Positions 5,027 to 22,994 of a DNA stretch of 49,347 nt are shown in pieces. Source of the stretch: an uncultured Ignavibacteriota bacterium (GTDB lineage: Bacteria; Bacteroidota; Ignavibacteria; UBA10030; UBA8401). A program made the position numbers and the translations under genes. The notes beneath the pieces were generated by a model. It was not told where the DNA came from, did not search any database, and saw only the letters and a program-made list of their open reading frames with translations. Numbering within the stretch: the first letter of the stretch is position 1; every line of letters begins with the position of its first letter. The stretch is from NCBI GenBank assembly GCA_903958625.1, contig CAJBTU010000425.1, positions 1-49,347 on the forward strand, in the 5' to 3' direction.

Positions 5027-7512
5027 TTCGCTTTTCCTTCCATTGCTCTTTTTGTTCTTCTCGTTGGTTCCGCTTCTAGCGGATTTTCCGGCCAAAAATG
5101 TTTAGGATATTGTCCCCGCATATCTTTTCGAACTTCAACATACGCATTCTTCCAAAAACTTGGAAGATCCTGCGTTACGGCAATCGGTCTGCGCGCTGGT
5201 GACAGGAGATGCAGGAGGACTTTTACTCGCCCTCCGCCTACGGTCGGTGTTTTCGTCTCTCCGAACATTTCCTGCAGGCGGACAGCAAGCACCGGCTGAT
5301 CTGTGCTATAGTCTATCGGTATGGACGATCCGGTAGGAACGGTAAGATGTGCCGGTGCCAGACGGTCAAGTTCTTGTAATTGTCCATAACTGAACATAGA
5401 GCGGACAATGTCATTCATATTTAATTTTGCAAGTTGAGAACGGCGGTAAATACCGTCGAGAAAAGGAGCAAGCCAATTCTCCAACGTTAAGGTCAAATGC
5501 TCGTCGGACAGATCGATCCAGTTGCTGACAATACTATTTCTCCGCAGCCACTCACTCCGTGTGCGTAATAAGAGTGATTCGCTGTTCCACGGTAATGCGG
5601 AACAACCGTAGCGTTGTATGGCACTCAGCATTATTTTTTTTGTTTCCACTATTCCCGGTAAGAATATTTTTTCCGCGATCTCCAGTGAGCCGAAAGTCGT
5701 AACACTTCGCGCAACAACGGATTCATCCTTTTCATCCCACACGATCTCTTTCTTCGTTTCAATTTGATCGGCAAAGAGTTCCAGGATATCTTTTTTCGAA
5801 ATCGATTCAGCAAGAAAGATCTTAATATCGCTTCCCGCGCCGTCAACCTCCCCGACGGCAAGATATTCCTCTTTTGAAAGCATGCTTCCTTTGGGAAGCG
5901 AAGCTGCCATATTTCCGGCAAGCTGATACCGTTCGCCCGATTTTCTTTTTGCTACTCTTTCCGGATAGGCCAAAGCAAGGAGTAGACCGAGAGACTCATA
6001 CTGCGCTTTTACCGTACGTTTCTTCAGTCCCATAAATTGCATCAATCGTTTGGATTGTTCACGCATCCTCTGCAAAGAATACCCGTCGGATACTTTTCCC
6101 TCATTCATTGCAGCGTAACGGGAATACAGATCGATATCGGCATCATTCTTACCGCGAAGAATATCCCGTTCATCAAGCAACGCCGCCACGTCGCAAGCAA
6201 GTTCGCCGAGCATCCGTTCATTTCCTTTGATCAGCATATGAGCAAACCGCGGGTGGACGGGAATGGCACTCATCATTTTCCCGTGTCCGGTCAGAATTCC
6301 GTTTTTATCCAAAGCACCAAGGTACCGCAGCAATTCCCGCGCTTGTGCAAGATGCGATGACGGCGGCCGGTCAAGAAATTTCAGCGTACGTCCGTCGCCG
6401 TCCCCCCACCGTGCAAGTTCCATGGCGAGCGGCGCAAGATCGGCCGCAACTATTTCCGGCGGAGAATATTTTGCAAGATTCACCTGCCGGGATTCCATCC
6501 AAAGGCGATAGCATACGCCGGGTTGCTGTCTGCCGGCGCGCCCTTTGCGCTGATCGGCTGATGCCTGAGAGACAGGAACCGTTACAAGACCGGACATTCC
6601 CCGGCGCGCATCAAAGATGGCGCTTCTCGACAATCCCGAATCGATGACGACGCGGACACCTTCAATGGTCAGACTGGTTTCTGCGATATTGGTGGAAAGA
6701 ATGATCTTTCGTTTTCCGTACGGAGCAGGATTGAGTGCCGAACGCTGTTTTTCGGGTGATGCTTCTCCAAAGAGTAAATGGATGAGCACATTTGGGGGAA
6801 GTTCTTTTTTGAGAAGAAGTGTTTCTACTTTTCGAATCTCGCGCTGACCGGGGAGAAAAACAAGGAGATCACCTTCGTCCTCCCGTAATGACCGTGCGAT
6901 AATATTGACAACAAGCGGTTCAATTGCGCCGTCGTGTGTTTGTGACAGATAGTGAACACTGACAGGAAAACTTCTTCCTTCGCTTTTGATGACCGGACAA
7001 TCACCCATTAATGTTGAAACAGCCGTACCGTCGATGGTTGCCGACATCACAAGAATCTTCAGATCATTTCGAAGTTGTTCCTGAACATCAAGGGTCAGTG
7101 CAAGACCAAGATCGGCATGGATGCTCCGTTCATGAAATTCGTCAAAGATCACCATCCCAACGTCTGTCAGCGAAGCATCTTCCTGGAGCATTCTTGTCAG
7201 GATCCCTTCCGTCACGACTTCCAGTCTGGTATTTTCCCCTACCCTGCTTTCTCCCCGAATTCGGTATCCTATCGTTCCGCCGGATTGTTCTCCACGCTGT
7301 TCAGCCATATATTCTGCAGACCGGATGGCCGCAAGTCTGCGCGGTTCAAGCATGATAATTTTTTTACCGCCAAGCCATTGTTCATCCATCAATGAGACCG
7401 GAACGCGCGTTGTCTTTCCCCCACCCGGTTCTGCCGAAAGAACCACATTGGTGTTCTGTTCAACAGCGGATAGCAATTGCGGCAGGACGATATCTATTGG
7501 AAGTGGTTTCAC
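5023..7512 (-). CDS. hrpB: ATP-dependent RNA helicase HrpB
   Basis: Walker A AEPGGGKTT, DEFHER (DExH), SAT, TNIAETSLTI, QRKGRAGR, HrpB-type C-terminus LLSPARRP...YPKHFWP. Confidence 0.95.
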   Translation of the reverse strand: MKPLPIDIVLPQLLSAVEQNTNVVLSAEPGGGKTTRVPVSLMDEQWLGGKKIIMLEPRRLAAIRSAEYMAEQRGEQSGGTIGYRIRGESRVGENTRLEVVTEGILTRMLQEDASLTDVGMVIFDEFHERSIHADLGLALTLDVQEQLRNDLKILVMSATIDGTAVSTLMGDCPVIKSEGRSFPVSVHYLSQTHDGAIEPLVVNIIARSLREDEGDLLVFLPGQREIRKVETLLLKKELPPNVLIHLLFGEASPEKQRSALNPAPYGKRKIILSTNIAETSLTIEGVRVVIDSGLSRSAIFDARRGMSGLVTVPVSQASADQRKGRAGRQQPGVCYRLWMESRQVNLAKYSPPEIVAADLAPLAMELARWGDGDGRTLKFLDRPPSSHLAQARELLRYLGALDKNGILTGHGKMMSAIPVHPRFAHMLIKGNERMLGELACDVAALLDERDILRGKNDADIDLYSRYAAMNEGKVSDGYSLQRMREQSKRLMQFMGLKKRTVKAQYESLGLLLALAYPERVAKRKSGERYQLAGNMAASLPKGSMLSKEEYLAVGEVDGAGSDIKIFLAESISKKDILELFADQIETKKEIVWDEKDESVVARSVTTFGSLEIAEKIFLPGIVETKKIMLSAIQRYGCSALPWNSESLLLRTRSEWLRRNSIVSNWIDLSDEHLTLTLENWLAPFLDGIYRRSQLAKLNMNDIVRSMFSYGQLQELDRLAPAHLTVPTGSSIPIDYSTDQPVLAVRLQEMFGETKTPTVGGGRVKVLLHLLSPARRPIAVTQDLPSFWKNAYVEVRKDMRGQYPKHFWPENPLEAEPTRRTKRAMEGKAK

Positions 7513-7622: not shown

Positions 7623-7934
7623 TTAGTACCGACGATTTCCACCGCCGCCGCCGCTGCGTCCACCGCCAAAACCACCGCGTGACGAATTTTCCGTCTTCGG
7701 GCGCGCTTCATTCACATCCATCGTACGGCCCATGAATTCTTTTCCGTGCAAAGCAGCAATAGCAGCTTCACCATCCTGTTTTTTCATGAACTCTACGAAA
7801 CCAAAACCTTTGGAAACATTGTTCGAACGATCACGAATGACCGTTACTTCACCCAGGTCACCATACGATTGAAATGCTTCCTGTAAATTTTCTTTTGTTA
7901 CTTCCCGATCCAAATTGCCAACGTAAAGTTTCAC
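7623..7934 (-). CDS. Single-RRM RNA-binding protein with Gly/Arg-rich tail
   Basis: RNP2 KLYVGNL, RNP1 KGFGFVEF, GGRSGGGGG tail; GTG start with AGGAG upstream. Confidence 0.93.
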   Translation of the reverse strand: MKLYVGNLDREVTKENLQEAFQSYGDLGEVTVIRDRSNNVSKGFGFVEFMKKQDGEAAIAALHGKEFMGRTMDVNEARPKTENSSRGGFGGGRSGGGGGNRRY

Positions 7935-8058
7935 TCTGAACTCCTAATGATATTGAATAAAAGAACATCTTCTTACTGTAACAAAGTACTATTAATAACT
8001 ACAGTAACCTATAACTCTTTTTACGGTAATTGCTCAGCATATTTCAACAAACAAAATT

Positions 8059-19122: not shown

Positions 19123-21408
19123 TTATCTTAAGAGCAGGGCAAGTTGTGCCGGCCTTTTCTTTTTAGCCGCTTTCCTTTTCTCCGTAACGGACTGCAGATC
19201 GAGTTCTTCCTTCAATACCTCCATTGAGTATCCCAGGGGCTGCAGCAGTGTCTCCGCCGCTTCCAGCACCATCTCGGAGTATTTCTCCGCATCGTAGCCG
19301 TCATCCAACGCATACAACGCCAGCGGTTTCGCTTTCATCGGGTCTTTCTTTCCGGTTGAATCCGTAATGATATACTGAATGCTTTCCCCCGCCATCAATT
19401 GAACGCCCGCTTCCGCAAGAGTCTGCGACACGATGGCGCTGACGCTGTTGTTCTCATATTCAAACGGATCTTTCGAAATGCGGCGCCGGATCACCAGTTC
19501 AAACGGTGAAACATTCCCTTGTTTCAGATCATTGATGTATTGTTTCGTCACTTTCAGCACTTCCGGCACCAGCATGTTCACGCCGGCAATATCATCCGCG
19601 CCGGACAGCACTTTCAGCATCGCTTGCTGCGCTTTCTGAACGTACTTCGGCACATCTTTTCTCCGCACCTCAATTCCCCGTACCTTGAATTCATTGGTAT
19701 CATATTGACCAACATAGCGTGTTGCCGTCGGAATTTCTTCGTCCATTTTTGAGACGGGAAACAATATCCACTTATATATTCCTTCAACGGATATTTTGAT
19801 GCCTGTTCCCTCTTCGATCTTTTTGGCAAGCAAAGCATACTCTTCGTGTGTGGCACCCTGCTTCTTCAGCCAGACACAATCAATGATCGCGTGGATTAGT
19901 TCAAAACCATCCTGCTCGGCGATCTCCTTGGCGCGAAGCAGCGTATCACGTGCAAACGCGTTCACCGATTCATGCGCTTCTATCCTGCCGAGGCGCGATT
20001 TTTTAAAGCCGAGATAACCGAAGCAGGTTACCAGTATCCATTTCAACGCGGATTGTTTATTGTCGTACCTCTTCCGCACTTCTTCCGTTGGCGCATCCGC
20101 TCTCAGTTCCTTATACCGCGCCCGTTTTTTGATGATCGGATCCAATGTTGCCGGGACCAATCCTCTCCGTTTTTCGCAGATGCGGAAACCTATCTCGGGG
20201 ACAAGATGCCGGGAATCAGGACAGCAGGGACAATCCAGCGTTTCGGTGGAGATATTATTGTTTCTCATGATCGTCGGATACATCGAAGCAAAATCCAGTT
20301 CCGCCACCTGTTCGTGATATCCGATCTCCGGCATAAAGTGAAGTCCGCCCCTGTCCGACTTCAACAATGTTGTCAGCGATTTGAACGCCTCCTTGATCGG
20401 ACGCTTGTACGGAACAAGAACATTGTTCCTGTACGTCCACGATATCTGCATGGATGACAATGCTGAACCGATGCTCGTGCGCGCCTGCTGCTGCACACCT
20501 ATCTGCGACATTCGTGCAAGGTCATACAATCCGTCAAGATCCCCCTCATTGATAATGAATGAATTCTCCTTGTCCAGATGCCAGCGGCCGGAGAGGGCGA
20601 ACGTGCCGTCCCTCTGCTTTACTTGTCCATAGGAAAAATAGGTGATCGCTTTTGAGAACATGAATCCTGCACCCGCATCACGGTTAAGATAGAGCGGCAT
20701 GTTCAGTTCCGATGCGGTCTGCTGCAGCATCGGCAGCAATGTTGCATCGCCATACTCGGTCAGAATTACGTCCGGATCGTATTTGTAAAGGTAATAGTTT
20801 ATCTGATTGATCAGTTCCCGCGGCGATTCCTGCTGCAGTACGCTCTTTCTTCCCTCCACTTCTATTTCGATCTCCAGATAACGCTGATACTTCGGCGCCA
20901 GAAGTTTTGCCGAAGGAGAAAGTGTCATAACCGTCAGAGGCGGAACATTATACGTTTCCGCCTCCATTCTTTCAAGCAGATTCCACGACTTCAGAAGACC
21001 GTTCTCTATCGTATATTCTCCGTACGCCAGCGGAAATAACTGTGTCGTATAGTAGAACATCTGCACCGCTTTGATGTCGGCATTGTAGAATTGATAGAAC
21101 TTAAATTGTTTGGAAAGCGTCCTTACAGTCTTTTGAAGCAGGTTGGGATTGTGAACATGTACGGCATAAACGTCAACATCGTTATTGGAGAGCAGATCCA
21201 TCTTCGCCGTCTTTGTCATCGTCACTTGATACGGAAGACGAAGAAGGACTTCGCGAAGCGTGACCGCTTCCTGCTCCGAAATGTGCAGATAGAAGCAGGG
21301 GGCAAAAGGAAATGCTGTCTTATGCCGTTTCCCGTCGGCATCGATGATCCAGACCGTCATCCCGGTATCGTTCACATACGCGTCAAACAGCCATCCTTGC
21401 AGTGTCAT
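19123..21408 (-). CDS. Family B DNA polymerase, archaeal PolB2/Dpo2-like
   Basis: Motif A LDFASMYP, motif B KQSALKWILVTCFGYLG, variant motif C HAIIDCVW, KVRGIEVRRKD, CPCC...C insertion. ATGA overlap with the upstream gene. Confidence 0.88.
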   Translation of the reverse strand: MTLQGWLFDAYVNDTGMTVWIIDADGKRHKTAFPFAPCFYLHISEQEAVTLREVLLRLPYQVTMTKTAKMDLLSNNDVDVYAVHVHNPNLLQKTVRTLSKQFKFYQFYNADIKAVQMFYYTTQLFPLAYGEYTIENGLLKSWNLLERMEAETYNVPPLTVMTLSPSAKLLAPKYQRYLEIEIEVEGRKSVLQQESPRELINQINYYLYKYDPDVILTEYGDATLLPMLQQTASELNMPLYLNRDAGAGFMFSKAITYFSYGQVKQRDGTFALSGRWHLDKENSFIINEGDLDGLYDLARMSQIGVQQQARTSIGSALSSMQISWTYRNNVLVPYKRPIKEAFKSLTTLLKSDRGGLHFMPEIGYHEQVAELDFASMYPTIMRNNNISTETLDCPCCPDSRHLVPEIGFRICEKRRGLVPATLDPIIKKRARYKELRADAPTEEVRKRYDNKQSALKWILVTCFGYLGFKKSRLGRIEAHESVNAFARDTLLRAKEIAEQDGFELIHAIIDCVWLKKQGATHEEYALLAKKIEEGTGIKISVEGIYKWILFPVSKMDEEIPTATRYVGQYDTNEFKVRGIEVRRKDVPKYVQKAQQAMLKVLSGADDIAGVNMLVPEVLKVTKQYINDLKQGNVSPFELVIRRRISKDPFEYENNSVSAIVSQTLAEAGVQLMAGESIQYIITDSTGKKDPMKAKPLALYALDDGYDAEKYSEMVLEAAETLLQPLGYSMEVLKEELDLQSVTEKRKAAKKKRPAQLALLLR

Positions 21409-21665
21409 ATCTCCTCCCCGTAATTTCGTAAGCGTTCTTTCAGTTCGTGGAGTTCTCCAACGAGTTTGACCAGGACGGATAACGTGATCTTATCCATCGT
21501 GATCGGTGTCGTTTGGAACGCGATCGACGGAAGATTCCGTTTAGCAATGCGAAATATCTCATCGAAGTGCTCCTGCTGCTCTTTTCGGAGCGCCCGGCGG
21601 AAGTTTCCCCACCGTTCCCGTTCCTTGTCGATGAGCCTTGTTGCGGTCGCTATCAGTCTTCCCAT
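21405..21665 (-). CDS. 86-aa helical PolB2-associated protein (arCOG07300-like)
   Basis: MGRLIATATRLIDKERERWGNFRRALRKEQQEHFDEIF matches the recalled archaeal MGR...W..FRRALR..D...FD pattern; GAGG upstream of ATG 21665. Confidence 0.75.
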   Translation of the reverse strand: MGRLIATATRLIDKERERWGNFRRALRKEQQEHFDEIFRIAKRNLPSIAFQTTPITMDKITLSVLVKLVGELHELKERLRNYGEEI

Positions 21666-22254
21666 TTCTTCCTCGTCTGGCGGGTGAGTGGTGGTATTCT
21701 TTGTCGATCCTGTAAGTGACATCGCTGATCCCCTTGAATGCGTTGAAATACTCTTCCCGTTCTTTCAATTGAAAATGGAGCGGCGTTGAGACAAGCAGCG
21801 TGGAGATATTCTCCGTTTTCAGTTGATCGAATGTCTGTTTGATCCTTGCAAGGATGTCGTGAATATCCGGAATGGAAACTTGTTCATCGTCGATAAGGTC
21901 CAATAGTCCGAAGACCATCACTGTTTTTGCATTCGTCTTTTTCATGAATGCGGCCAAGCCGTCGGTGATTGCCACATCGACCTGATAGAATGTATAGCAC
22001 CGGCTGATGAATCCCCTCTGCATAAGTTCTTCCGGTTCAAGGCCTGCCGTCTTGAAGATGCCCGCAATAAAGAACGGATCGGTCGTATTCGCCGCATCAA
22101 CGATCACCACCGGTTCTTTCTTGCGCAGAAGTTCAGCGGCAACAAGCATAGCGGTATGATAGATGCCGTAATTGCCATGCAGAAAATTGATCGCCGGCGA
22201 CGATGTTTCCATTGCCAGTTGTATCGTTCTATATGATTGAATGACTGTTTCCAT
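21559..22254 (-). CDS. Inactivated RecA/RadA-superfamily ATPase (ImuA-like role)
   Basis: VVIVDAANTTDP, FISRCYTFYQ and strand-helix pattern of the RecA core; Walker A position reads HGNYGIYH with no GKT. Confidence 0.7.
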   Translation of the reverse strand: METVIQSYRTIQLAMETSSPAINFLHGNYGIYHTAMLVAAELLRKKEPVVIVDAANTTDPFFIAGIFKTAGLEPEELMQRGFISRCYTFYQVDVAITDGLAAFMKKTNAKTVMVFGLLDLIDDEQVSIPDIHDILARIKQTFDQLKTENISTLLVSTPLHFQLKEREEYFNAFKGISDVTYRIDKEYHHSPARRGRNGKTDSDRNKAHRQGTGTVGKLPPGAPKRAAGALR

Positions 22255-22330: not shown

Positions 22331-22531
22331 TTAGATCACTTTTCTTAACTTATGCTTCGACCGAAATGAAACTTCTATATCCCCGACAACTTTTCCGGCC
22401 TCGCGCGGGAAATAAATCTGTATGCCGCCGTAATGGTCCTCCGGAGATCTCACGTTCAGGATGTCCAATATTTTATTGAGATACGAGTTGATCTTTTCCC
22501 GCTCTTCTATTGTATAATCACCGCTCGTCAT
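22331..22531 (-). CDS. 66-aa hypothetical leader protein
   Basis: ATG about 65 nt below the predicted promoter; purine-rich upstream sequence (GGAGAACAGGG); helix-then-strands pattern HYGGIQIYF...GKVVGDIEV. Confidence 0.55.
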   Translation of the reverse strand: MTSGDYTIEEREKINSYLNKILDILNVRSPEDHYGGIQIYFPREAGKVVGDIEVSFRSKHKLRKVI

Positions 22532-22581: not shown

Positions 22582-22632
22582 CTGTATAAATTTACACTGT
22601 ATAAATTTACAGTATTTTGAATAACTTGTCAA
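22582..22632 (-). promoter_or_regulatory. Sigma70 promoter overlapped by tandem SOS-box-like operators
   Basis: -35 TTGACA (22632-22627), N17, -10 TAAATT (22609-22604); 15-bp tandem repeat CTGTATAAATTTACA x2; box 22597-22612 is a perfect CTGT-N8-ACAG. Confidence 0.75.
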
Positions 22633-22750: not shown

Positions 22751-22781
22751 TTTGAAAATCACCGTTTCGTTCGTATATTTG
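22751..22781 (+). promoter_or_regulatory. Promoter of the tRNA-Ser/tRNA-Pro pair
   Basis: TTTG-N19-TATATTTG (Bacteroidota-like), also readable as TTGAAA-N16-TATATT. Confidence 0.5.
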
Positions 22782-22805: not shown

Positions 22806-22895
22806 GGAGAGGTGGGTGAGTGGCTTAAACCAGCGGTTTGCTAAACCGCCGTACGGGGTTAACCTGTACCGAGGGTTCAAATCCCTCCTTCTCCG
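22806..22895 (+). tRNA. tRNA-Ser(GCU)
   Basis: GGAGAGG acceptor, GCGGT-TTGCTAA-ACCGC anticodon arm, long variable arm, GGTTCAAATCC. Confidence 0.95.
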
Positions 22896-22906
22896 CAATA
22901 ATTGTT

Positions 22907-22981
22907 CGGGGTGTGGCTCAGCCCGGTTAGAGCGCGTGGTTCGGGACCACGAGGTCGGAGGTTCGAATCCTCTCACCCCGA
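22907..22981 (+). tRNA. tRNA-Pro(CGG)
   Basis: CGGGGTG/CACCCCG acceptor, CGTGG-TTCGGGA-CCACG anticodon arm, GGTTCGAATCC. Confidence 0.95.
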
Positions 22982-22994
22982 CAACTAAAAAAAG

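Follow-up and report, generated by a model that had tools for sequence, protein, structure and literature searches.

LexA motifs are generally regarded as class- or phylum-specific. The gamma- and betaproteobacterial SOS box, TACTG(TA)5CAGTA in E. coli, is a 16-bp CTGT-N8-ACAG palindrome with an AT-rich spacer, and in colicin operons two such boxes are combined at the promoter of a product whose leaky expression is dangerous. In the cea promoter of ColE1 (CTGTATATAAAACCAGTGGTTATATGTACAG, ColE1 5063-5093), two 16-bp boxes share 1 bp and lie at a 15-bp offset within 31 bp; colicin double boxes bind two LexA dimers, giving very tight repression and expression in few cells (PMC2994835). SOS repressors of the FCB group, which regulate themselves as well as translesion polymerases, have been described with other motifs: the non-canonical LexA of Bacteroidetes reads GGA-N5-TCC or CTAA-N5-TTAG (PMC8565304), and the LexA of Balneolaeota, a related FCB phylum, reads an experimentally validated direct repeat, TTACACATATTTTWTACATA (PMC7739468). 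No LexA motif described for Ignavibacteria was found in a literature search.

On the polymerase side, Timinskas, Timinskas & Venclovas 2025 (PMC11791011) described the iRadA-PPB2-PolB2 operon, or "PolB2 mutasome". Its polymerase falls into the G2 group of Kazlauskas et al. 2020 (PMC7544198), a translesion polymerase module that bacteria received from archaea. lexA was found to be enriched in bacterial polB2 neighbourhoods, and the operator and promoter were not described there (PMC11791011). The cassette resembles imuA-imuB-dnaE2 and umuDC in that LexA controls an error-prone polymerase together with an accessory subunit and a recombinase-like subunit that is inactive, and that lexA is in some cases part of the operon; it differs in having a polymerase of family B rather than C or Y and unrelated accessory proteins.

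The locus reported here lies in a 49-kb window (the whole stretch of DNA analysed, 49,347 nucleotides). Judged from its sequence, it carries a standard SOS operator: its sequence type and geometry are known, as is the cassette behind it, and it had not been described for the lineage of the host, an uncultured lake bacterium related to Ignavibacteria; the operon and its regulatory logic are ordinary. The boxes share with the E. coli SOS box the 16-bp palindrome, the AT-rich spacer and the position over the -10, and they share with the ColE1 promoter the 1-bp overlap and the 15-bp offset. The system differs from that of E. coli in its host, an Ignavibacteria-like FCB lineage with an isolated LexA family, and from the colicin double boxes in being chromosomal, in controlling (as predicted) lexA and/or a translesion polymerase operon, and in reaching three units in relatives. 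None of the Bacteroidetes or Balneolaeota motifs matches the window boxes. At a probability of about 0.8, the boxes would represent a LexA autoregulatory double operator on the PolB2 operon, which has been kept after loss of the cassette's own lexA, with repression provided in trans.

A candidate double SOS box on the cassette promoter

Direct reading of the window showed that 22582-22611 is an exact tandem duplication of the 15-mer CTGTATAAATTTACA (Tandem Repeats Finder: period 15, 2.0 copies, 100% matches). The promoter-proximal copy together with the next G forms a perfect CTGT-N8-ACAG palindrome (box 1; Table 1), bp 22597 is common to this box and to box 2, and the two boxes together span 31 bp. 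A hand count of the 20-mer CACTGTATAAATTTACAGTA against the E. coli consensus TACTGTATATATATACAGTA gave identity at 17 of 20 positions. In the minus strand, a promoter scan detected TTGACA from 22632, a 17-nt spacer and TAAATT down to 22604 (10/12 matches), which places the predicted -10 (22609-22604) inside the perfect box 1; box 2 would cover the start-site region, about +1 to +16 of the predicted promoter. The exact 15-bp double repeat, the 17/20 match and a -10 located within the perfect box at 17 nt from TTGACA had all been proposed in the original prediction, and all are borne out by these analyses.

Table 1. Positions in the window of the predicted promoter elements, the candidate operators and the genes behind them
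Feature	Position	Strand	Evidence and remarks
-35 hexamer TTGACA, predicted cassette promoter	22627..22632	-	Promoter scan; (A)CTTGACA kept in 38 related promoters
-10 hexamer TAAATT, predicted, within box 1	22604..22609	-	Promoter scan; TATATT/TAAATT at same place in orthologous promoters
Candidate SOS box 1, perfect palindrome CTGTAAATTTATACAG (gene orientation), promoter-proximal, over -10	22597..22612	.	PSSM score 29.9
Candidate SOS box 2, GTGTAAATTTATACAG (gene orientation), 15-bp offset, 1 mismatch	22582..22597	.	PSSM score 26.0
p66, 66 aa, first gene behind the operators in the window	22331..22531	-	After cassette-linked lexA in nearly every relative locus encoding p66
iRadA, inactivated RadA/Rad51-like subunit, 231 aa	21559..22254	-	Weak RadA matches; family in PMC11791011
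PPB2, small helical partner protein, ~86-105 aa	21405..21722	-	Conserved start MGR..T at ~21665; family in PMC11791011
PolB2, family-B DNA polymerase, 761 aa, archaeal-derived bacterial G2/PolB2 group	19123..21408	-	Pfam DNA_pol_B E = 2.9e-33

A PSSM scan of the whole window revealed no further good SOS box, the best match elsewhere (7987) scoring 12.7 versus 26-30 for the two boxes, in agreement with the earlier remark that the motif was not seen upstream of polA, nth or hrpB. CTGT-N8-ACAG itself occurs only once in the 49-kb window (22597-22612), and by itself this lone occurrence is not significant, as 0.28 are expected per window and at least one was found in 25 of 100 shuffles. The boxes are placed beyond chance by their conservation in related promoters, and not by the palindrome count in a single window.

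Two other sequences of the window deserve mention. The stretch TTACTGTAGTTATTAATAGTACTTTGTTACAGTAAG (7975-8006, minus strand), about 50 nt upstream of a gene for a glycine-rich RRM RNA-binding protein (GTG start at 7933), has CTGTA and TACAG halves; it was rejected as an SOS box because of the wrong half-site spacing and the lack of a -35 at the conserved distance, and is probably due to chance. On the plus strand, a sigma-70-like promoter (TTGAAA, 16 nt, TATATT; 22752-22779) diverges from the cassette promoter just upstream of tRNA-Ser (22806-22896) and tRNA-Pro (22907-22982).

The operon behind the boxes

The four minus-strand genes behind the boxes (p66, iRadA, PPB2 and PolB2, taken from the window ORFs) can be assigned to the known PolB2 mutasome cassette iRadA-PPB2-PolB2, here headed by a 66-aa gene. 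The likeness to the published operon (PMC11791011) includes the gene order, the degenerate exonuclease domain, the single Asp of motif C and the presence of lexA near the cassettes of relatives; it differs from the published one by the 66-aa gene before iRadA and by the loss of the cassette's own lexA. The order iRadA-PPB2-PolB2 on one strand is kept in almost all loci of sufficient length among 80 related PolB loci.

In the polymerase of the window, the exonuclease domain match falls below the Pfam cut-off, the best NCBIfam matches are archaeal-type PRK05761 subfamilies, and motif C reads IIDC, with a single Asp and an invariant Asp-Cys. Degenerate exonuclease motifs and one Asp in motif C place this polymerase, as far as its sequence tells, in the B2/G2 group. 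The PolB2 C-terminus (19123-19160, minus strand) ends in RPAQLALLLR, in which QLALLL resembles a beta-clamp-binding motif (QLxLF type); this end fits the report of a clamp motif on either PolB2 or iRadA (PMC11791011).

For iRadA, the start was placed at 22212 by gene callers. The GK[ST] P-loop is absent from the 231-aa protein of the window, and aligned relatives read GKL or GKV. Within 21559-21722 (minus strand), the iRadA ORF overruns the conserved PPB2 start (~21665) by about 105 nt (35 codons) in a different frame, as also observed in L001, L003 and L007. The apparent conservation of this out-of-frame tail among close relatives is due only to its mirroring the PPB2 N-terminus, and the overlap is absent from loci at greater distance. 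The iRadA-PPB2 fusions described in the literature keep the reading frame, unlike the overlap in the window.

The 66-aa protein p66 gave no Pfam match above the cut-off (DUF4844 was sub-threshold only), 8 close homologues in a word-indexed search, and an AlphaFold model of low confidence (pLDDT 62) with a predicted helix and beta-hairpin. Besides the window, p66 was located at 4797-5000 of L007, at 4651-4851 of L117 and in many other loci. It remains with lexA where the lexA-p66 pair lies about 4 kb from iRadA (L022, L044, L047, L074) and is absent behind stand-alone lexA genes. p66 could be a LexA partner or modulator, or a part of the mutasome. LexA modulators available for comparison include GIL01 gp7 and Acinetobacter DdrR.

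Conservation of the promoter in related loci

An alignment-based scan of species-representative genomes with PolB yielded 80 loci, mostly in MAGs labelled Ignavibacteria or Bacteroidota, and a similar scan of metagenomes with LexA yielded 54 further loci. The original prediction had proposed to look for the motif in orthologous cassette promoters and upstream of lexA, and it was found in both places: the same architecture recurs in 38 related promoters, and the motif precedes the cassette lexA as well as the stand-alone lexA of relatives. The window and the related loci retrieved contain no recA, uvrA, recN or dinB. The layout common to the 38 promoters is TTGACA, 14 nt, box 1, box 2 and sometimes box 3, in strict 15-bp phase. 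Members of the clade with 62% or more PolB identity to the window have an upstream region that reads ACTTGACA, 14 nt, CTGTAwATTTwTACAG and then TrTAAATwwwTACAG. Box 1 begins 14 nt behind the -35 in every case and, in nearly all 38 promoters, matches CTGTA-N6-TACAG with one mismatch at most. Box 2 keeps its 15-bp offset, and its two halves differ in conservation, the right one (TACAG, or in some cases AACAG or TACAC) being better conserved than the left one (GTGTA, GTATA, GCATA or GTGAT in various promoters); because the left half is degenerate in many relatives, box 2 may be a weak or auxiliary site.

The number of boxes varies as well. L115 (3912-3990) and L116 (3927-3990) are otherwise near-identical and differ by one 15-bp unit, having 3 and 2 boxes, respectively, and three boxes were also found at L010, L084, L095 and L099. 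The operator array seems to expand and contract by slippage in 15-bp units. Variable unit number and the strong conservation of TACAG, the best conserved part of every unit next to the loose left halves of boxes 2 and 3, would also be expected if LexA recognised not separate palindromes but a direct repeat, with TACAG recurring at 15-bp intervals in 2-3 units, in a manner similar to the direct-repeat motifs of Balneolaeota and Alphaproteobacteria. Such a mode of recognition appears unlikely, as box 1 is a palindrome with no more than one mismatch in nearly all 38 promoters, the conserved site of a sister group is also a 16-bp palindrome (GTAwA-N6-TATAC), the spacing is 15 bp here versus about 13 bp in the Balneolaeota repeat (our own count on the published consensus), and the same 15-bp offset works in the ColE1 double box for the palindrome-reading LexA of E. 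coli.

A search for a relaxed form of the motif (CTGTA and TACAG around an AT-rich N6, one mismatch allowed), run over 1.315 Mb made up of the related loci and the window, returned 44 matches versus a mean of 1.7 in dinucleotide shuffles, and all inspected matches lay at lexA or cassette promoters. This enrichment and its restriction to such promoters argue against the repeat being a mere by-product of an AT-rich promoter (a slipped -10 duplication) or a tRNA-adjacent attachment site, with no repressor function. Exact duplication and variable unit number do point to replication slippage, a single CTGT-N8-ACAG is not rare at the chance level given above, and tRNA-Ser and tRNA-Pro lie about 200 bp from the repeat; however, the G/C bases of CTGT and ACAG, which a promoter can dispense with, are conserved even where PolB is only 62-66% identical to that of the window and the upstream neighbours are different. 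A by-product of this kind is extremely improbable, and the attachment-site and terminator readings of the repeat were rejected, no terminator-like or tRNA-matching sequence having been found there.

Several further features were observed among the related loci. One subclade (L010, and also L004, L088, L094-L097, L099, L100 and L125) has an insertion between the operator array and lexA, a Cys-rich DUF3795 gene (L010 3708-4004; Pfam E = 4.5e-8), which by its position behind the array is predicted to be SOS-regulated. The most similar PolB in the genome collection (84% identical) is that of L001 (CALRIY020000064.1), filed under a 'Synechococcus sp. UW140' MAG; its contig is clearly of the Ignavibacteria-like lineage and hence probably mis-binned.

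lexA behind the boxes and its loss in the window's population

In most loci of the clade with at least 62% PolB identity, the first gene behind the promoter encodes a canonical LexA (LexA_DNA_bind + Peptidase_S24), followed by p66, and a canonical lexA likewise comes first at most of the 38 related promoters. Such a LexA lies directly behind the boxes in L007, L009, L011, L033, L081-L090 and L115-L117. The closest relatives of the window are among them (L115, L116 and L117, with identities of 84-86% for PolB, 93-96% for PPB2 and 86-89% for p66), lexA following immediately after the same promoter and boxes. A second group of lexA genes stands alone, without p66 and without cassette (L083-L087, L113, L118, L121, L140-L146), in a context of conserved glycosyltransferase and CTP-transferase neighbours; their promoters share the TTGACA-N14-box1-box2 design, and the encoded LexA is 87-100% conserved across many contigs. 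Since stand-alone lexA genes carry the same double operator, the operator tracks lexA rather than p66 or PolB2. According to the alignment, these LexAs retain the Ala-Gly site of cleavage as well as the catalytic residues Ser and Lys. One genome holds both paralogues: a single 2.89-Mb contig (Ga0265292_1000001) carries the cassette-linked lexA of L117 as well as the stand-alone one of L121, both with CTGT-type double operators. In several contigs (L140-L144), a hicB-hicA antitoxin-toxin pair was observed directly 3' of the stand-alone lexA.

Of the two readers considered in the original prediction, the first, a LexA of the lineage itself reading the proteobacterial motif, gains support from the same boxes before canonical lexA in relatives, and the second, a cassette-specific repressor, finds its explanation in the LexA paralogue which in relatives lies right behind the same promoter and boxes. 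A Bacteroidetes non-canonical LexA regulon (CI-like HTH + S24) was rejected, the boxes being CTGTA-N6-TACAG and the linked repressors having LexA_DNA_bind; the rule that Bacteroidetes use a different motif is not applicable here because the Ignavibacteria-like lineage has a canonical LexA. Among distant PolB2 cassettes (PolB ~48-52% identical), a divergently transcribed HTH_XRE + Peptidase_S24 gene, the 'non-canonical LexA' architecture, was observed in place of canonical lexA (L013, L016, L018, L025, L027, L034, L038, L043, L046).

In the 49-kb window itself, no lexA was detected by tblastn. Four lake-water runs contain the window at 98-100%, and alignment of their contigs to the lexA-bearing L117 revealed that window-type contigs skip L117 positions 3981 to 4643/4651, that is, exactly the lexA ORF (661-669 bp), with a 38-46-nt filler joining box 2 to the p66 start; in the window, the operators lie about 50 nt upstream of p66. 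The cassette lexA has been lost in the window's population and the operators have been kept intact, which implies a trans-acting repressor. In addition, lexA-minus cassettes (those of the window, L001 and L002 and, separately, that of L003) are scattered among lexA-plus ones (L116, L117; L090, L009) in the PolB identity matrix, pointing to at least two independent losses.

In each of the four lake runs, one contig aligned to the L121 lexA and covered the operator region, with TTGACA just upstream in the contig. The depths of this stand-alone-type lexA contig over the four runs (13.6/10.4/9.9/10.3) are close to those of the cassette (15-17/11.3/10-11/9-14), and cassette-type lexA at 80% identity or more was not detectable in the same runs. 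Co-presence and similar depth in four samples of one study amount to co-occurrence, not proof, of a stand-alone lexA in the same genome as the window. Exact-protein look-ups (P0127, P0133, P0136, P0144, P0148) for the stand-alone lexA contig of the window's population returned other samples only.

Recognition helix and operator sequence

Like E. coli LexA, the LexAs of this lineage are canonical winged-HTH + S24 proteins, and in the cassette LexA the recognition helix opens with Asn-Ala as in E. coli (NVNAAK(E/D)H in the window's relatives, NVNAAKDH in L117, SPNAAEEH in E. coli), whereas the Glu44-Glu45 acidic pair of E. coli LexA is not kept in the stand-alone paralogue (NLNAVRSH). Asn at the position equivalent to E. 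coli Asn41 (xxNA(V/A)(R/K)xH) is associated with CTGTA boxes, and Ser at this position in sister LexAs (QPSAxR) with GTAwA-N6-TATAC boxes (L008, L044, L047, L074, L098, L101-L112, L120). L118 (QPNAVR, CTGTA) and L008 (QPSAVR, GTATA) differ essentially in one residue, that at the Asn41 position. Altered-specificity mutants of E. coli LexA include N41S. The correlation between helix and operator may reflect a single evolutionary event. Other motifs were also noted among related MAGs: L091 and L092 (helix SGNGVRGH) have GATAGTT-N10-AACTATC, L053 and L064 have GTATACATTTGTATAC, and L065 has the related CCATACATTTGTATGG, which illustrates LexA motif drift.

It is very unlikely that the cassette has a dedicated regulator distinct from LexA that reads the boxes, such as p66 autoregulating its operon. 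p66 is the first gene behind the boxes in the window, where there is no lexA, and it is tightly linked to the cassette promoter region in many loci; but the same double operator is found at stand-alone lexA genes having neither p66 nor cassette (L083-L087, L121, L140-L146), operator sequence changes follow the changes in the LexA helix, and p66 has no recognisable DNA-binding domain in Pfam and only a low-confidence model.

The LexA clade is isolated: among representatives of 50%-identity clusters the nearest is 48% identical to it and the rest at most 43%, and its few organism-named neighbours are Acidobacteria. Recent horizontal transfer of lexA from Proteobacteria is not supported by these distances and names, and the shared E. 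coli-like motif is more likely convergent or anciently retained than recently transferred.

A model for control of the PolB2 operon

Taken as LexA operators, the two 16-bp boxes would bind the SOS repressor on a sigma-70-type promoter, box 1 over the -10 and box 2 over the presumed start site, and the promoter would drive p66-iRadA-PPB2-PolB2 as a damage-inducible operon for a translesion ('mutasome') polymerase. The ancestral state would be an autoregulated promoter with its own lexA as first gene of the operon (lexA-p66-iRadA-PPB2-PolB2). A deletion has removed precisely this ORF from the window's population, and repression would probably come in trans from the second, stand-alone LexA paralogue, whose own promoter appears to bear the same double operator. 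By analogy with the colicin promoters, two LexA dimers on boxes sharing 1 bp may act cooperatively, resulting in tight repression and late induction; upon DNA damage, RecA-stimulated self-cleavage of LexA would free the promoter. Tight repression with late induction, which we infer from this analogy, would suit both an autoregulated lexA and a mutagenic polymerase.

A broader and more tentative scenario, to which slightly less than even odds are given, would be that an FCB-group (Ignavibacteria-like) lineage independently reached or anciently kept the exact LexA specificity of E. coli, and that one helix position (Asn versus Ser, E. coli Asn41) switches the half-site between CTGTA and GTAwA in sister clades. 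The same operator would be read by two LexA paralogues, a chromosomal one and one at the head of the PolB2 mutasome operon, so that the cassette copy could be lost repeatedly without losing control, and the array would vary in 15-bp units between 2 and 3 boxes. The redundancy of paralogues, which lets the cassette lose lexA, and the variable number of boxes are both moderately interesting.

The double box supplies a candidate for the missing cis-element of the reported lexA-polB2 association in bacteria, and SOS control of an archaeal-derived PolB2 mutasome becomes directly testable; the combination of a sigma-70-consensus promoter with E. coli-type boxes makes a reporter in E. coli an easy first test. 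In addition, these findings would add a LexA motif for the lineage, one that coincides with the proteobacterial motif outside Proteobacteria, and the natural minimal pair of QPN and QPS helices, matched to CTGTA and GTAwA, may provide a handle on the evolution of LexA specificity.
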